From the NCBI GenBank assembly GCA_002482805.1, contig DLGR01000034.1:106208-170207 (forward strand): a stretch of DNA of 64,000 nucleotides, given 5' to 3'. This DNA comes from Micavibrio sp. UBA7689. GTDB lineage: Bacteria > Pseudomonadota > Alphaproteobacteria > Micavibrionales > Micavibrionaceae. The notes under the pieces were generated by a model, which was not told the origin of the DNA, made no database searches, and was given only the letters and a program-made list of their open reading frames with translations. Positions 52,945-58,628 of the stretch are shown here, in pieces (the stretch's first letter is position 1; each line of letters begins with the position of its first letter). Both the position numbers and the translations under genes were made by a program.

Positions 52945-53607
52945 TCAGAGCTTGAGCGGCTCTACGGCCATGCCGCGTTCTTCCTTGGAAATGATCGTGA
53001 AATTGAACGCGATCGATATGCGGTCTTTTTCCGATTGGTGCGGCGTCACCGAATGCCACAAATAGGATGGGAATATAATTCCCATACCGGGGCGCGGGAA
53101 AAACTTCACATAGTTTTTTTCACTGAGCTCGGCCAGCGAAGCGTTGCCGCGCGGATCGTGCAAAATCAAAACACCCGGGTCTAACGCCCAATATCTTTTG
53201 GTGTCTTCCTGCACGAACAAATCCTGTTTTTCATTCACATCGGGAATATCGACATAATAAACGCCAGACACTTGCGCCTGATGGTTATGCGCGGGGACAT
53301 ATGCGCCTTTCTTGCCGTAGTTGGGAAACACATGCGTCTGCACGCCGAATTCGCCTTGGATGCCTTCGGCTTTAAGCCATGAAAGCATCCCATCCCACAT
53401 AAATTCTTTGAGCTTGGTCAGAACGGGATATTGATTGGAATGATCCATCATATCTTCAAGGTCGGCTATTTTTTCGAAATATTTGGAAGAGTATTTCTTT
53501 TCGGCGCGGAACATTTCGCGCAAACCTTCGACCATCACTTCGTCGCCGGAGTGTTTTGTAACAACTCTTGTGGGGAAATAAAGTTTATGATCCCAAGCCG
53601 CTTCCAT
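52945..53607 (-). CDS. putative 2OG-Fe(II) oxygenase superfamily protein (TIGR02466-like)
   Basis: 220 aa. HNHQAQVSGVYYV...FPSYLWHSVTPH fits the HxD/H...H facial triad pattern of this family. Confidence 0.6.
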   Translation of the reverse strand: MEAAWDHKLYFPTRVVTKHSGDEVMVEGLREMFRAEKKYSSKYFEKIADLEDMMDHSNQYPVLTKLKEFMWDGMLSWLKAEGIQGEFGVQTHVFPNYGKKGAYVPAHNHQAQVSGVYYVDIPDVNEKQDLFVQEDTKRYWALDPGVLILHDPRGNASLAELSEKNYVKFFPRPGMGIIFPSYLWHSVTPHQSEKDRISIAFNFTIISKEERGMAVEPLKL

Positions 53608-53650: not shown

Positions 53651-54592
53651 CTATTGCGGAGCTAAGGCTGGTGCGGCTGAGGGTGCCTGCCCTGCAGCTC
53701 TGCGCAAGAACAGCGTGCCGGCACCTTCATCGGTCAGAAGTTCTTTCTCGATCGCCTGCTTGTCCGCGCCATTCAGTATGACCACACCGCCCACAGCAGG
53801 ATTGGAAGCTACGTCCATCGCGGCCTCGACTTTTAGTTTCATACCGCCGTAAATGGTACCATCGTCGATCCAGTGTCTCCAGTTATCCGTGTAGATATGC
53901 GAAATGCGTTTTTTGCTCTTATCGAGGACGGCATCAACGTTCGTACACAATATCAAACGCTGCGCGCCTAGCGAGATGGCGATTCCTGCCGCAACTTCAT
54001 CTGCATTGACGTTCATGCAAATACCGTCCTGCCCCATACTGATGGGATGAATGATCGGAATACTGTTCGCCGCCGTGAAGTAAGAAAGCTTCGCGCTGTC
54101 CACGTCCGTGAGCGTTCCCGTGCGGGAGTTCTCGAAACGTGGCTTCGCCGTTATCAGTCTGGAATCATTGCCGCCAAGCCCTATCGCATTCACATCCGCT
54201 CCAAGCTTGGCTGCTTCTTCATGAAACAGATTGACGATGCGGCGGTTGAGTTCGTTAAGGCAGCGGTGCGTAACTTCAAGAGTCGCCAGATCCGTAATGC
54301 GGGCATCCGTAACTTTGTCTTTTAACGGTTCTATCCCTGCGCGTTTCAATTCTTCATCGATCTGCGTTCCACCGCCATGAACCAGAACAACGCGCGCACC
54401 GAAATTTTTCAACGTGATCGCCTGTACCATCAGGTTACGAATAACGTCGTCCTGCGCCACCAACTCGCCGCCGAATTTGATGACGATGGTTTTGTCTCGG
54501 TACTTGGCGGCATAGCGCGCCGCTACCGTGTAAAAGTCGGGGGAAATGGTCGGCGGGGCCGCCGATACGCCGTCTGGGGAAGTCATACACAC
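53651..54592 (-). CDS. argB: acetylglutamate kinase
   Basis: 313 aa. IVIKFGGELV...VLVHGGG.QI...NVNADEVAAGIA. Confidence 0.92.
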   Translation of the reverse strand: MCMTSPDGVSAAPPTISPDFYTVAARYAAKYRDKTIVIKFGGELVAQDDVIRNLMVQAITLKNFGARVVLVHGGGTQIDEELKRAGIEPLKDKVTDARITDLATLEVTHRCLNELNRRIVNLFHEEAAKLGADVNAIGLGGNDSRLITAKPRFENSRTGTLTDVDSAKLSYFTAANSIPIIHPISMGQDGICMNVNADEVAAGIAISLGAQRLILCTNVDAVLDKSKKRISHIYTDNWRHWIDDGTIYGGMKLKVEAAMDVASNPAVGGVVILNGADKQAIEKELLTDEGAGTLFLRRAAGQAPSAAPALAPQ

Positions 54593-54655
54593 ACCTTGGT
54601 TTTCTTATTGATGATGTTATGTATAAAAATAATCTGGTTAACGTCAACAAATTAA

Positions 54656-54685
54656 TTGTAAAGGGATGGGTTTTTGCCTTATAAC
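54656..54685 (+). promoter_or_regulatory. candidate sigma70 promoter TTGTAA-N18-TATAAC (leader copy A)
   Basis: Conserved in copy B as TTGTAG-N17-TATAAC. The -10 ends 7 nt before the uORF ATG. Confidence 0.5.
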
Positions 54686-54692
54686 GGCCTCC

Positions 54693-54746
54693 ATGATCGA
54701 CATGGCCCACAGCATAATCTGCTCCCAGCGACGACGTACCGCCTGA
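54693..54746 (+). CDS. candidate 17-aa leader peptide A: MIDMAHSIICSQRRRTA
   Basis: ATG ATC GAC ATG GCC CAC AGC ATA ATC TGC TCC CAG CGA CGA CGT ACC GCC TGA. Same length, frame and stop context as copy B, with 9/17 residues identical. Confidence 0.55.
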   Translation: MIDMAHSIICSQRRRTA

Positions 54747-54826
54747 CCGCCCGGTTGGAATAGGTTCGGACGTGACGCCATTCGTCACATAATAAAAACG
54801 ATAAGCCCCCCACCGTAGCGGTCACC

Positions 54827-54865
54827 GAGACCTTCTCCCTCCCGAGAAAGGCTCCCCTGTTTTTT
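54827..54865 (+). terminator. attenuator terminator hairpin of leader A
   Basis: GAGACCTTCTC / GAGAAAGGCTC (10 bp, two bulges), loop CCTCCC, then CCCTG-TTTTTT. 24 nt upstream of the GNAT-A ORF. Confidence 0.5.
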
Positions 54866-54888
54866 CCTGACAACGCTGAACGATTACG

Positions 54889-55494
54889 GTGAAACCCATG
54901 TTAACGACCAATTTGGCCCTGAAGGCCATCCCTGAAGAGCAACCTCCCGAACCACAGCAGAGTTATCTGCTCATGACCAAGGCGGATATTCCCGCCTTCC
55001 TCGCCCTGCAGGCGAAAGTCATCGCGGCCTTGCCCGAAGACAAGAAGCACTATCTCAAACCCAGAACCGCAGAGGACCTCGAAGCCCATCTTTCGGCCGA
55101 CATGCCTGTCATCGTGGTCAAGGACCATGACGGCAAAATCATCGCGCAGGCGCTGGTCACCTTGTTCAACTCGCCCGCCGCGAAGAATCTCGGCGACTAC
55201 CCCAACATCGGCACGGATCCCAAGGCGGCGGTTCAGGCGGTTCAGGTAGATCCCGACGCGCGTGGCAAGAAGCTTTCGGAAGTGCTTCTAAATGCTGCCA
55301 AAATAGAAGCGGCCAAACTCGGCGCCGCCTCTTTGCTTGCCAAAGTCGCCACCGACAACGACAGCCAGAAGAGCTTTATCAGCACTCACTTCACAAAGGC
55401 GGCGGAGAACGTTTGGGACAAGGCCGGCCGCTACTTCGCGAACTATTTTCAGGTGGCATTGGCCAAGTCAGAGCCTCTTCTGAGGCCGGTTTAG
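54889..55494 (+). CDS. GNAT-family N-acetyltransferase, paralog A
   Basis: 201 aa (an alternative ATG at 54898 follows GGTGA). Motif A-like VQVDPDARGKKLSEVLLNAAKIEAAKLGA. Paralogous to 55795-56448. Confidence 0.65.
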   Translation: MKPMLTTNLALKAIPEEQPPEPQQSYLLMTKADIPAFLALQAKVIAALPEDKKHYLKPRTAEDLEAHLSADMPVIVVKDHDGKIIAQALVTLFNSPAAKNLGDYPNIGTDPKAAVQAVQVDPDARGKKLSEVLLNAAKIEAAKLGAASLLAKVATDNDSQKSFISTHFTKAAENVWDKAGRYFANYFQVALAKSEPLLRPV

Positions 55495-55553
55495 CATGTT
55501 GCAATTGTGTCACACCTGTGGCGGAGATTTTTTGGCCAAGGGGCAATTTATTA

Positions 55554-55582
55554 TTGTAGTGACCGTCACTTAGGCGTATAAC
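55554..55582 (+). promoter_or_regulatory. candidate sigma70 promoter TTGTAG-N17-TATAAC (leader copy B)
   Basis: The -10 ends 6 nt before the uORF ATG at 55589. Confidence 0.5.
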
Positions 55583-55588
55583 AAGGAC

Positions 55589-55642
55589 ATGATTTTGATG
55601 GACCACAACATAATCAATTCGAGAACCCGAAGTACGATCTGA
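55589..55642 (+). CDS. candidate 17-aa leader peptide B: MILMDHNIINSRTRSTI
   Basis: ATG ATT TTG ATG GAC CAC AAC ATA ATC AAT TCG AGA ACC CGA AGT ACG ATC TGA. The stop lies in the conserved cTGACCGCCCG block. Confidence 0.55.
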   Translation: MILMDHNIINSRTRSTI

Positions 55643-55722
55643 CCGCCCGCGTGGTTCAGGATCGGCAGTGGGTACATCTTCGCTGCATTTAAAACGAACA
55701 GCCTTCCACCGCTAGCGGTCAC

Positions 55723-55762
55723 GAGACCCCCTCCCTCCCAGAGAAGGGCTCTTTTGTTTTTT
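55723..55762 (+). terminator. attenuator terminator hairpin of leader B
   Basis: GAGACCCCCTC / GAGAAGGGCTC, loop CCTCCCA, followed immediately by TTTTGTTTTTT. Confidence 0.6.
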
Positions 55763-55794
55763 ACTCACTGCAAAACAAAAGACGTTAGAAAGAA

Positions 55795-56448
55795 GTGGTT
55801 CGCACCATGTTTAAAGCCAATTTCATTGAGAAAGTCGATCCGGACCCTTACCCGCGCGGTAGCGGCTCCTCGGTTGTACTGCTCACCAAAAGAGACATCC
55901 CTGATTTCCTGAATCTGCAACAACAGATTTGGAACGATTTGCCTCTGCGCAAGAAAGACCACTTGAAGGTTTTCTCGGTGCAGGAAATCGTCGACCACAT
56001 GGACGCGGGCATGCCCGTTCTGGCCATCCGCGACTATAATGGCGGCTTGCTGGCGCAGGCAGTTCTCTCCCTGCCCTTCGACAAATACGGTAACCCGTAT
56101 CTTGACGATCACCCCATGCTCGAAGGCTATGATGACGGCATTTCGGTGCTCGAATCGCTTTGCGTGCGTCCCGATGTTGCACACCAGCATCTGGCCGACA
56201 TGCTTTTGGCCTATGCGCAGGGTCTTGCAACGCAGCAAGGATCGCCCAGCATTCTGGCCAAGGTGTCGGACGAGCCCATGCTCGGTGCCGAATCCTTTGA
56301 CCGTTCGGGTTTTGTGCAGACGCTCTGTGAACTGAATATCGACATCGATATCCCCGTTCACTTCTATCAGTGGCTGAAATTCCGCGAGAGCGACGAGAAA
56401 TACATGGATCCGAACAACTATCCGGAATACCTGTACGACATGCACTAG
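55795..56448 (+). CDS. GNAT-fold protein, paralog B (degenerate acetyl-CoA P-loop)
   Basis: 217 aa. LLTKRDIPDFLNLQQQIW..LP..KKDHLK...MPVLAIRDYNGGLLAQAVLSL aligns with paralog A. Motif A reads VRPDVAHQHLADMLL instead of R-G-x-G/A. Confidence 0.55.
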   Translation: MVRTMFKANFIEKVDPDPYPRGSGSSVVLLTKRDIPDFLNLQQQIWNDLPLRKKDHLKVFSVQEIVDHMDAGMPVLAIRDYNGGLLAQAVLSLPFDKYGNPYLDDHPMLEGYDDGISVLESLCVRPDVAHQHLADMLLAYAQGLATQQGSPSILAKVSDEPMLGAESFDRSGFVQTLCELNIDIDIPVHFYQWLKFRESDEKYMDPNNYPEYLYDMH

Positions 56449-56455
56449 ATAAATT

Positions 56456-56514
56456 AACGTTTCTCCCTATATAATAGAAGGACGCAAACCCTTCTAAAAA
56501 ATGGGAGAAACGTT
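56456..56514 (+). repeat. 12-bp perfect inverted repeat AACGTTTCTCCC...GGGAGAAACGTT enclosing a 6-bp inner hairpin; its 3' arm contains the argD Shine-Dalgarno
   Basis: Arms at 56456-56467 and 56503-56514. Inner stem AGAAGG/CCTTCT at 56476-56481/56490-56495. TTT and then the ATG (56518) follow. Confidence 0.7.
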
Positions 56515-56517
56515 TTT

Positions 56518-57711
56518 ATGGCCGACGCCGGTTTCCTAGATCACGCCAACGACATCCTTATAAACGTATACGGCTTCTGGCCTGTCCAGATGGCAAAGGG
56601 CAAAGGCGTCTATCTCTACGACACCGAAGGACACAAATATCTCGATTTCGGCGCGGGCATCGCGGTCAACAATCTCGGTTATGCCCACCCCGTCTATACC
56701 AAGGCTCTCAAGAAACAGATTGATAAGCTCCATATGGGGCTTTGCTACATCGCCGATGAAAAACGCATCGCAGCGGCGGAAACGATTCTGGCGATTTCCG
56801 AATTCGATCAGGTGTTCTTTTGCTCTACGGGCGCGGAAGCCGTCGAAGGCGCGTTAAAGACCGCCCGCAAATGGGCCACCGAAACGCACGGCGCGGACAA
56901 ACATGAATTCGTCTATATGAAGAACTCCTTCCACGGGCGCACGATGGGCGCGCTCTCCGTGATCGGCCAGCAACATTACCGCGACGGCTTCGAACCCTTG
57001 CTTCAGGGCACGCGCATGGCGGAATTCAACAATCTCGACAGCGTGAAAAAACTCGTCTCCGCCAAAACCGCGGCGATCATTCTGGAACCCGTGATGGGCG
57101 AAGGCGGCATCATTCCCGCCACGCCCGAATTTCTCCATGGCCTGCGCGCGCTGTGCGACGAACACGACATTGCGTTGATATTCGATGAAGTCCAGTGCGG
57201 TATGGGCCGCATCGGCGAAATCTTCGCCTATGAACATTACGGCTTAGTACCAGACCTGATCTGTCTGGCCAAAGGTCTTGGCGCGGGCTTCCCCGTCGGC
57301 GCCTATATGGGCAAAAAGAAATTCACCTCGCACATCACGCCCGGCTCTCACGGCTCCACCTATGGCGGCAATCCGCTGGCGACCACGGCGGTCACCACCG
57401 TTATCAAGGAAATGCTCAAACCCGGTTTCATGGATAACGTGAACAAGGTGGGTCAGGTTTTGAAAGACGGGCTGGAAGAGATCGCGCGCGACAGCAATCT
57501 TCTTTCCAACGTGCGAGGTCTGGGTATGCTGCTCGCCGCCGACTATAACGGCGGACCCGTGAAGGATTTTGTGAAGAAGTGCCTCAAGAACGGCTTGATC
57601 GTACTTTCCTGCGGTGAAAACGCGGTCCGCATCGTTCCGCCGCTTATTTTGACGGAAAAACAGGCCAAAGAAGGCCTCGCCATCCTGAAAAAGACGCTGG
57701 CACAGGTTTAA
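56518..57711 (+). CDS. argD: acetylornithine aminotransferase
   Basis: 397 aa, class III PLP aminotransferase. LIFDEVQCGMGRIG...LAKGLGAGFP...THGSTYGGNPLA. Confidence 0.9.
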   Translation: MADAGFLDHANDILINVYGFWPVQMAKGKGVYLYDTEGHKYLDFGAGIAVNNLGYAHPVYTKALKKQIDKLHMGLCYIADEKRIAAAETILAISEFDQVFFCSTGAEAVEGALKTARKWATETHGADKHEFVYMKNSFHGRTMGALSVIGQQHYRDGFEPLLQGTRMAEFNNLDSVKKLVSAKTAAIILEPVMGEGGIIPATPEFLHGLRALCDEHDIALIFDEVQCGMGRIGEIFAYEHYGLVPDLICLAKGLGAGFPVGAYMGKKKFTSHITPGSHGSTYGGNPLATTAVTTVIKEMLKPGFMDNVNKVGQVLKDGLEEIARDSNLLSNVRGLGMLLAADYNGGPVKDFVKKCLKNGLIVLSCGENAVRIVPPLILTEKQAKEGLAILKKTLAQV

Positions 57712-57731: not shown

Positions 57732-58628
57732 ATGACCAACCATTTCCTCGATTTCGCGGATATTCCCGCCGCGACCCTGCGCGCCATTCTCGATGATGCC
57801 CATCGCCAGAAGAAGGAAAAGCGCAACCCCCGTCAGGTGCTCGAAGGTCTCTCGCTCGCGATGATGTTCGACAAGCGCTCCACGCGCACGCGCATCTCAT
57901 TCGAGGTCGCGATGAAACAACTCGGCGGCCACACCATCGTCATGGATATGCAGAACATGCAAATCACGGGCGCCGAAAGCCCCGAAGATACCGCAAAGGT
58001 TCTCTCGCGTTTCGTCGATGCCATCATGATACGCTGCTCTGATCAGGATATACTTCATGAACTTGCAAAATACGCGACCATTCCGATCATCAACGGCATG
58101 ACGGACAAATCCCATCCCTGCCAGATCATGGCGGACCTCATGACCATCGAGGAAAAAATCGGTGATGTGAAAGGCAAGAAGATCGCTTGGTTCGGTGATT
58201 ACAACAATGTCTCGCGTACCTTCGTTCAGGCGTCCAAGAAATTCGGGTTCGATTTCGTCGCCGCCCTGCCGTCGCAACTGCATCTTAAGGCCGACATGGG
58301 CACGCTTGTCACGGACGATCCGAAACTCGCGGCGAAGGATGCCGATGCTTTGGTCACCGACACATGGGTATCTATGGGACAGGAAGGAAAGTCGATCGAT
58401 ATGTTCCGTCCCTATCAGGTAACCAAGGAATTGATGGATCTGGCCAAACCGCACGCTGTCTTCATGCATTGTATGCCTGTGCACAAGGATGAGGAAGTGT
58501 CCGAGGAAGTGCTGCGTGGACCCGCCAATGTCATGTACGACGAGGCCGAAAACCGCCTGCACATACAAAAAGCCATACTGGCATGGTGTCTGTCCGATGC
58601 GGGCGTTAAAATCAGCCGCTCCGCGTAA
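57732..58628 (+). CDS. argF: ornithine carbamoyltransferase
   Basis: 298 aa with STRTR, HPCQ and FMHCMP motifs. Confidence 0.92.
   Translation: MTNHFLDFADIPAATLRAILDDAHRQKKEKRNPRQVLEGLSLAMMFDKRSTRTRISFEVAMKQLGGHTIVMDMQNMQITGAESPEDTAKVLSRFVDAIMIRCSDQDILHELAKYATIPIINGMTDKSHPCQIMADLMTIEEKIGDVKGKKIAWFGDYNNVSRTFVQASKKFGFDFVAALPSQLHLKADMGTLVTDDPKLAAKDADALVTDTWVSMGQEGKSIDMFRPYQVTKELMDLAKPHAVFMHCMPVHKDEEVSEEVLRGPANVMYDEAENRLHIQKAILAWCLSDAGVKISRSA

Follow-up and report, generated by a model that had tools for sequence, protein, structure and literature searches.

The 64-kb stretch of Micavibrio sp. UBA7689 considered here (contig DLGR01000034.1, positions 106,208 to 170,207; "the window" from now on, to which all coordinates refer) carries, between the divergent arginine biosynthesis gene argB and a gene for a GNAT acetyltransferase, a leader composed of a promoter-like sequence, a short upstream open reading frame (uORF), a long hairpin that opens at the uORF stop codon, and a terminator-like hairpin. 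Comparison of its sequence with those of relatives indicates that this leader is real, conserved, and duplicated, and that its function is probably regulatory. The device can be regarded as a variant of the leader-peptide attenuator. The mechanism proposed for it, with a probability of roughly 0.5, is a ribosome-dependent transcription attenuator that would read arginine supply through a leaderless peptide of 15-18 codons containing the rare codon CGA. The identity of arginine as the signal is inferred from the gene context and the codons.

In the first of the two copies, leader A, the candidate promoter (54656-54685) consists of TTGTAA (54656-61), an 18-nt spacer, and TATAAC (54680-85), and 7 nt separate the end of the -10 element from the ATG at 54693, so that the mRNA would be leaderless. 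The first-pass annotation of this DNA had placed each of these elements exactly where it is found, as it had the 17-codon uORF (54693-54746, TGA stop at 54744-46), which encodes the peptide MIDMAHSIICSQRRRTA, and its three consecutive Arg codons CGA CGA CGT (54729-54737, codons -5 to -3 counted from the stop). A simple sigma-70 scan called neither promoter A nor that of the second copy because the -10 element ends in C; a terminal C at this position fits the alphaproteobacterial consensus. The features of both leaders and the two GNAT genes lie on the + strand.

A homologous leader is present upstream of the GNAT gene in every related contig fetched. The 13 distinct versions, all from Micavibrio-like contigs, comprise 11 core leaders and the divergent L006 and L015 (versions from relatives are named L001-L016, with the suffix B for second copies, and winB is copy B of the window). 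The promoter layout of TTGnnn, 17-18 nt, a -10-like hexamer, 6-7 nt, and ATG recurs in 13/13 versions, none of which has a Shine-Dalgarno sequence before the uORF ATG. A covariance model built from five versions, leader A of the window included, has exactly two matches in the 64 kb, at 54741-54863 (121.6 bits) and 55637-55760 (91.3 bits), and one match before each related GNAT gene, and it returned no further leader copies in the window or in ~130 kb of related contigs. The other short open reading frames of the window that end in an RR tail are without promoter-like context. Leaders A and B are counted in favor of attenuation because there are two paralogous copies, and one before each GNAT gene fetched. 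The comparison of the regions upstream of orthologous GNAT genes, which had been recommended at first pass, shows that both the leader and the frame of the uORF are kept, with no frame-breaking indel. Rfam 15 gave no match at E-values up to 10 over 54000-56600, and none at gathering thresholds in the whole window. With 13 versions, covarying helices, and no Rfam match, the earlier proposal of a conserved cis-regulatory leader has been strengthened.

The uORF itself appears to be translated, as had been suggested before. Its length in the 13 versions is 15, 16, 17, or 18 codons, with indels solely in threes. Synonymous pair differences over the last 14 codons amount to 117 in frame, the alternative frames giving 40 and 32. 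Coding would end at the stop, because the loop of the apical helix P2 beyond it tolerates insertions of 14 and 16 nt. These insertions, together with the lack of a conserved frame, led to the rejection of a coding sequence continued into the hairpin by read-through of the UGA or by recoding of the selenocysteine type. Codon -4 from the stop is CGA in 13/13 versions, and CGA-CGA-CGN is found in nine of them, the remainder having RRP, NRR, RTRS, or LERS. CGA accounts for 4.1% of the Arg codons in the 37 long open reading frames of the window. Outside the Arg run, H(-12), I(-10), I/V(-9), and S(-7) are largely conserved through synonymous changes such as ATA/ATC, GTC/GTT/GTG, and TCC/TCG/TCT. Ten of the 11 core leaders have the stop in the context UGA-C, which in E. 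coli is a weak signal for termination; L001B has UGA-U.

The long irregular hairpin of leader A, here called the protector (54744-54824), is defined by folds, covariation, and the covariance-model match. It opens with the 7-bp helix P1 (TGACCGC 54744-50/GCGGTCA 54818-24) and continues through P1b (CGGTTGG 54752-58/CCACCG 54810-15) and P3 (GGUUCG 54763-68 with CGA 54799-801 plus GCC 54805-07) to the apical P2 (GTGACG 54772-77/CGTCAC 54783-88); P1, P1b, and P2 had been located correctly from the single sequence. The 3' side of the internal loop is rich in A, and in the 11 core versions the first pair of P1 uses the U of the UGA stop. A hairpin with a C-rich loop follows 2-3 nt past the long hairpin, and in most versions directly abuts a U-tract. 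In leader A this terminator-like element (54827-54865) has a GAGACC...GGCTC stem (54827-54854), the C-rich loop, CCCTG, and T6 at 54860-65; the hairpin predicted at first pass is thus present at its position, but as a terminator it is non-canonical, with the U-tract 5 nt off the stem. The CCCTG spacer is peculiar to the window lineage, and most relatives have CTC and then TTTTGTT directly. A simple terminator scan called neither leader terminator because their stems are bulged. A minus-strand site of the same scan, 54816-54789, corresponds in reverse complement to the leader A junction that is rich in A; it is probably a composition artefact (A-rich/C-rich), and no minus-strand gene ends there.

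The fold of the single sequence is unexceptional on its own (z = -1.15), and it is the comparison between versions that argues for the structure. In the model alignment, 96% of the cells are paired, 13 pairs are changed on both sides versus 2.8 expected, a number reached by 0/500 shuffles, and the paired share falls to 35-53% in slid registers, figures that lean high because the alignment was fitted to the model, consists of related sequences, and includes one spurious row, a minus-strand match of L015. Compensatory changes occur in P1 (TGATCGC/GCGATCA in L001B), P1b, P2 (GTGACG/CGTCAC versus GTGATG/CATCAC versus GCAGTG/CRCTGC), and the terminator stem (CG versus UA). The stop-anchored helix and the downstream hairpin are therefore conserved and covarying in relatives, a point for which the first-pass annotation had proposed a test. 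G-U pairs in P1b, P2, and P3 indicate that the functional RNA is that of the + strand. Lineages that share 58-66% identity in the GNAT coding sequence share 65-94% in the RNA part. An extension of P1 upstream of the UGA, or a downstream pairing of the Arg-codon region, was considered and rejected, as no conserved complement was seen by eye, and free folds vary.

The whole leader recurs as a paralogous copy, leader B, at 55554-55806, 900 nt downstream of leader A and before GNAT gene B. Its candidate promoter (55554-55582) reads TTGTAG, 17 nt, TATAAC, with 6 nt from the end of the -10 element to the ATG at 55589. The 17-codon uORF B (55589-55642, peptide MILMDHNIINSRTRSTI, TGA stop at 55640) no longer has two of the Arg codons that form the run of three in uORF A, and holds CGA at -4 and AGA at -6; the B copy of L001/L009 has 18 codons and a single Arg codon. 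The long hairpin B (55640-55721) again opens at the stop, since the TGA at 55640 is the first triplet of the P1 strand (TGACCGC 55640-46/GCGGTCA 55715-21), and P2 is formed by GCAGTG (55665-70) and CGCTGC (55681-86). P1 is maintained in the B-type leaders by compensatory change. The terminator hairpin B (55723-55762) has a stem-loop at 55723-55751, followed at once by TTTTGTTTTTT. Some 10-15 nt beyond the U-tract, and before the ribosome-binding site (RBS) of the GNAT gene, AAAACAAAAGA (55772-55782) is the perfect complement of the U-tract segment TCTTTTGTTTT (55750-60). This complement is found in most versions (window copy B, L004, L005, L007, L010, L013, and L016) and is absent from copy A, L002, and L014. 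It could represent a fold of read-through transcripts only, or a DNA palindrome for a protein, two roles that are indistinguishable because the sequence is invariant.

The two divergent versions, L006 and L015, keep a leaderless uORF ending in (N/Q)RR(R)xx-stop, although the RNA downstream is different, which marks the uORF as the core of the device. In L015 (2831-3000) and L006 (480-640) the uORFs read MRQKLHISLQRRRGG (with a TAA stop) and MRHFSSIFPVPNRRSR, respectively. A 9-bp hairpin in L015 runs from the last Arg codon to just beyond the stop, while the GGAGG RBS of the GNAT gene is paired to a segment rich in C. The RNA of L015 suggests a translational rather than a transcriptional platform.

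The attenuation mechanism would operate as follows. Transcription would start at the AUG or one base earlier, and a 70S ribosome would translate the uORF. With no ribosome near the stop, the long hairpin would form and lock the G-rich strand AGGUUCGG (54762-54769) into P3. Once this strand is locked, the terminator hairpin would form, and transcription would end ahead of the GNAT gene. A ribosome positioned on the last codons or the stop while the polymerase makes the terminator would block P1 and P1b; AGGUUCGG would then pair with CCGAGACC, at the base of the terminator 5' arm, leading to read-through into the GNAT gene and, in copy B, further into argD and argF. The preferred form of this mechanism is a delay timer, where slow decoding of CGA would keep the ribosome close to the stop at the moment of decision, causing derepression when Arg-tRNA is scarce, and where, with ample Arg-tRNA, the ribosome would already have terminated and gone. 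This form has the right sign for a biosynthetic operon. In the alternative arrival logic, only a ribosome past the Arg codons would open the hairpin, and read-through would occur at plentiful arginine, the wrong sign for argB, argD, and argF. That logic parallels the one of orf34/speF, where at high arginine the ribosome on the stop blocks the stop-adjacent hairpin, and a pause on the Arg codons permits it (PMC6386406).

The candidate antiterminator of copy A had been anticipated as a pairing of a G-rich segment with the terminator 5' arm, and its best form, in a slightly shifted register, joins AGGUUCGG to CCGAGACCU (54825-54833), which covers the linker and the base of that arm. CCGAGACCU, through its CGAGACC, resembles the P3 partner CGAUAAGCC (54799-54807), as competing strands should. 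The pairing potential of AGGUUCGG with CCGAGACC is 6-8 bp in most versions. Folds were predicted for transcripts ending at the terminator 3' arm, with the ribosome footprint, from A-site nucleotide 1 to +12, forced to be single-stranded. Placing the A site on the stop lowers the predicted terminator probability of copy A from 0.87 to 0.09 and that of copy B from 0.70 to 0.04, with a smaller decrease in L004, L005, and L013. Shuffling the G-rich strand of copy A abolishes the predicted switch, only 1/150 shuffles being as low, and the dependence is weaker in L001B, L004, and L013 (8-11/150). Averaged over the 11 core leaders, the mean probability of the terminator is 0.89 with the A site on Arg -5, 0.91 on Arg -4, 0.69 on Arg -3, 0.80 on codon -2, 0.55 on codon -1, and 0.42 on the stop. 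The idea put forward at first pass, that a ribosome on the Arg codons or the stop masks the helix, would accordingly apply, given a standard footprint, to the stop, the two sense codons before it, and the third Arg codon, and not to the first two Arg codons. Two other elements were rejected as the switch: a GGUC/GACC mini-hairpin as antiterminator is broken by the compensatory change of L001B (GAUC) and absent in L002, and a pairing between the A-rich junction and the U-tract, seen in masked minimum-free-energy folds, would have to form while the U-tract is still in the RNA-DNA hybrid.

A number of observations weigh against attenuation in this form. As long as the A site is on Arg -5 or -4, neither the hairpin nor the terminator is affected, so the textbook scheme of a stalled ribosome masking strand 1 is inapplicable and the model has to invoke timing; the polarity would be the opposite if the stall were hard or the logic one of simple arrival. 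The predicted terminator probability does not decrease in L002, L010, and L014 with the A site on the stop, where the antiterminator is not predicted to win, and the effect of the G-rich strand has no sequence specificity in winB, L005, and L010. The antiterminator is without covariation, its pairing positions being invariant, and RNAalifold, with the 5' strands masked, returned the terminator and no antiterminator. The U-tract of copy A stands 5 nt from its stem, and those of L002 and L014 are poor. Conservation of the non-Arg residues is not needed by a pure hungry-codon sensor, the B-type leaders (RTRS, LERS) keep the apparatus in full with one or two Arg codons, and the junction nucleotides are conserved beyond the needs of base-pairing. 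The antiterminator is thus convincing in some copies only, and the switch as modeled is plausible.

The main rival, held more tentatively, is that the uORF encodes a nascent-peptide arrest sensor. A stall at the weak UGA-C stop, or beside it, would be brought about by the conserved peptide H-x-I-[IV]-x-S-[QL]-R-R-R-x-x, either intrinsically or triggered by a small molecule such as arginine or ornithine, in the manner of TnaC, SpeFL, or the fungal arginine attenuator peptide (AAP), and the parked ribosome would keep P1 and P1b open and switch the terminator. The Arg residues would here matter as amino acids in the exit tunnel and not as codons. Such a stall would fit a helix anchored on the stop, a terminator effect that is greatest with the A site on codon -1 or the stop, an invariant Arg spacing, always at -4, and non-Arg positions kept through synonymous changes. 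The B-type leaders, which retain R(-4) and the whole apparatus despite the loss of other Arg codons, and the prevalence of UGA-C (10/11 core leaders) point in the same direction, and there is a precedent in SpeFL, the uORF of an ornithine/arginine-related operon, with a ligand pocket built from two Arg residues and ribosome stalling on the stop (10.1101/604074). However, an amino-acid constraint cannot explain that position -4 is always the rare CGA and no other Arg codon. The final two residues vary, the peptides, of 15-18 residues, lack the HIRRXXH motif and effector domain of SpeFL and have no homology to any known arrest peptide, and an arginine-induced stall would give read-through at high arginine, the wrong sign for genes linked to argB, argD, and argF. 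Somewhat more doubtful still is the specific version in which the uORF would be the first bacterial counterpart of the fungal AAP, a leaderless chain that parks the ribosome on UGA-C for arginine or a pathway intermediate and flips an intrinsic terminator. The fungal peptide reportedly stalls the ribosome on its own stop in the presence of arginine and controls an arginine-pathway gene, in a eukaryotic setting where scanning is blocked; its sequence has no similarity to the Micavibrio leader peptides. If this version were true, no shorter metabolite-sensing arrest peptide would be known, and none other would act on the Rho-independent termination of an anabolic operon.

It is rather unlikely that the long hairpin is a riboswitch-like aptamer or the operator of an RNA-binding protein, with binding stabilizing P1 and the terminator and the uORF in an auxiliary role, perhaps to reset the fold or to leave the 5' end free of structure. 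The layout does resemble that of an OFF riboswitch, with P1, the terminator within 2-3 nt, and a strand that could pair with the 5' arm of the latter; conservation of the RNA, including its unpaired junctions GGAC and ACAAUAAAAACGAUAAGCC, far exceeds that of the coding sequence next to it, and the motif CGA-(N)-A/GCC is present twice. Nevertheless, it is a single rod-like hairpin with no multi-helix junction, it has no Rfam match even at the permissive E-value of 10, the junction sequences of the B-type leaders and L014 differ considerably, and the uORF is under coding-level selection of its own and persists in L006 and L015 without this RNA. The first-pass annotation had also considered a drug-inducible leader, with RRR as a +X+ motif like those of macrolide-dependent arrest peptides; as in Erm or MsrD leaders, it would stall macrolide-bound ribosomes and induce a drug-modifying acetyltransferase. 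Both RRR and RTR contain +X+, which most versions have, the gene downstream encodes a GNAT, and the MsrD leader reportedly relieves a terminator by a stall on a short uORF (PMC10314930). This possibility has become very improbable given the conserved synteny of the GNAT gene with an M20 deacylase gene, argB, argD, and argF across divergent lineages, the nearest folds, which are amino-acid N-acetyltransferases of the phosphinothricin/YncA type rather than aminoglycoside enzymes, and the lack of +X+ in the LERSTI lineage (L001B/L009B); in addition, the A site of a ribosome stalled by +X+ would lie at -3 or -4, positions with hardly any effect on the hairpin. Just as little weight is given to an unregulated 5' untranslated region, whose open reading frame and helices would be functionless inheritance, or a leaky constitutive terminator or stabilizer. 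The unremarkable single-sequence fold would agree with it, as would the confinement to one narrow clade, where shared ancestry inflates apparent conservation. Against it stand the compensatory changes in four helices, the in-frame synonymous excess and exclusively 3n indels of the uORF, a leader more conserved than coding sequence, and the maintenance of two paralogous copies in one genome.

Arginine biosynthesis is the textbook case of control by the ArgR repressor, and the amino acids with known attenuation through a leader peptide are Trp, His, Leu, Thr, Phe, Ile/Val, and Cys. Like the classical attenuators of proteobacteria (trp, his, leu, thr, phe, and ilv), the Micavibrio leader has a short open reading frame with end-product codons, a terminator-like hairpin, and candidate alternative pairings, and rare codons would again act as sensors, as CUA does in the leu leader. 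Contrary to them, the amino acid would be arginine, and the open reading frame would be leaderless and is without a Shine-Dalgarno sequence, the usual means of initiation for leader peptides in proteobacteria. The regulatory codons are located upstream of the protector helix, which begins at the stop, and not inside it, a hairpin of 75-90 nt separates the uORF from the terminator, and the antiterminator is weak or uncertain.

Literature searches found no leader-peptide attenuator described for arginine biosynthesis. The earlier statement that no arginine leader-peptide attenuator is known in bacteria holds in this narrower form, but needs correction in that uORFs sensing Arg codons do exist, namely Salmonella orf34/SpeFL (PMC6386406) and S. 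aureus rbfL (PMC13009471), neither of which involves arginine biosynthesis or an intrinsic terminator. Leaderless leader peptides are likewise known, from Deinococcus deserti (PMC4007540) and mycobacteria (10.1101/834739). Both are similar in that the transcript starts at the AUG of a short sensory open reading frame rich in the relevant amino acid (poly-Cys in the mycobacteria), biosynthetic genes follow, and pausing remodels the RNA, and they differ in belonging to other phyla and other amino acids; the mycobacterial system additionally relies on RBS sequestration instead of an intrinsic terminator, and its peptide is conserved only in the Cys run.

A parallel in logic is offered by SpeFL/orf34 of speF in Salmonella and E. 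coli (PMC6386406; 10.1101/604074), where two consecutive rare Arg codons report arginine ahead of an arginine/ornithine operon, and a ribosome pausing on the stop opens a stop-adjacent hairpin, its position choosing the RNA fold. SpeFL, however, has 34 residues with a HIRRXXH sensor (residues 10-16) and a C-terminal Phe-rich effector domain, is Shine-Dalgarno-led, acts through Rho and RNase G, induces a catabolic decarboxylase, and has no sequence homology to the peptides described here. In a by-eye comparison, membership of SpeFL/DUF2618 was not supported, as the leader peptides have neither the HIRRXXH motif nor the effector domain and precede a GNAT gene and not speF. The uORF rbfL of S. 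aureus (PMC13009471) is also small and senses arginine limitation by ribosome pausing on rare Arg codons (RKR), but control is translational, by RBS occlusion, the target is a biofilm regulator, and the uORF is not leaderless. TnaC (PMC8450073) shares a short uORF, a free amino acid as signal, and a stall on its own UGA stop; it differs in being Rho-based, inducing catabolism, and showing no sequence similarity, and a ligand-dependent stall is only hypothetical for the Micavibrio uORF.

An attenuator of this kind would fill the arginine gap among attenuators and show how the pathway is regulated in Micavibrio-like alphaproteobacteria, which are obligate predators. With its codons upstream of the helix, a helix locked to the stop, a predicted leaderless start, and a peptide conserved beyond Arg, the layout is unusual and, for that reason, suited to asking about ribosome timing versus nascent-chain arrest. 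The diverged paralogous copies (RRR versus RTRS/LERS) in one genome amount to a set of mutants supplied by nature. A further lead provided by the leader is that the missing N-acetylglutamate synthase of these organisms probably belongs to an unannotated GNAT family.

GNAT gene A (54898-55494) encodes a protein of 198 aa with the Pfam domain Acetyltransf_1, and GNAT gene B (55807-56448) a paralogue of 213 aa with ~30% identity to it. A hairpin with a T-run (55508-55533, + strand), called by the terminator scan, follows directly after the stop of gene A. GNAT A would therefore be monocistronic, and leader A would control this gene alone, with leader B in charge of GNAT B and of argD (56518-57711) and argF, for ornithine carbamoyltransferase (57732-58628), the latter two being above their NCBIfam cut-offs. 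Neither GNAT matched any NCBIfam model. The family is small, with 6 proteins retrieved by single-sequence search and 22 by profile search among 5.8 billion; its few named members come from Micavibrio metagenome-assembled genomes (MAGs), the closest genome match is a Micavibrio sp. MAG at 92% identity, and profile scans of genomes and metagenomes added only 3 loci. The structure model of GNAT A (pLDDT 87) has as its nearest solved folds the YncA/PA4866/phosphinothricin N-acetyltransferases, which act on glutamate analogues and are not aminoglycoside enzymes. From context and predicted fold, this unnamed family is probably the N-acetylglutamate synthase of these organisms.

On the other side of leader A, argB (acetylglutamate kinase, 53651-54586, minus strand; TIGR00761, 170 bits versus a cut-off of 151) is transcribed divergently, its start being taken, from a reading of the sequence, as the ATG at 54586 and not the GTG at 54592 that opens the frame. 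The region between argB and leader A (54593-54655) is a very AT-rich divergent promoter region (…TGATGATGTTATGTATAAAAATAATCTGGTTAACGTCAACAAATTAA…), where the stretch TGTATAAAAATAATC bears a loose likeness to an ARG box. The gene order M20 amidohydrolase, (argB), leader, GNAT, argD, (argF) recurs in divergent lineages, with argC and a second kinase as additions in the L015 locus. Arginine biosynthesis is reportedly absent from the type strain M. aeruginosavorus ARL-13 (PMC3189940), from which the Micavibrio-like relatives with the leader differ. Between the M20 amidohydrolase gene and argB, the window has a gene resembling 2OG-Fe(II) oxygenases (52945-53607, minus strand; PF13759, with TIGR02466 below cut-off). 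This gene is found solely in the window lineage, and in the related contigs the M20 gene leads directly to argB or to the leader.

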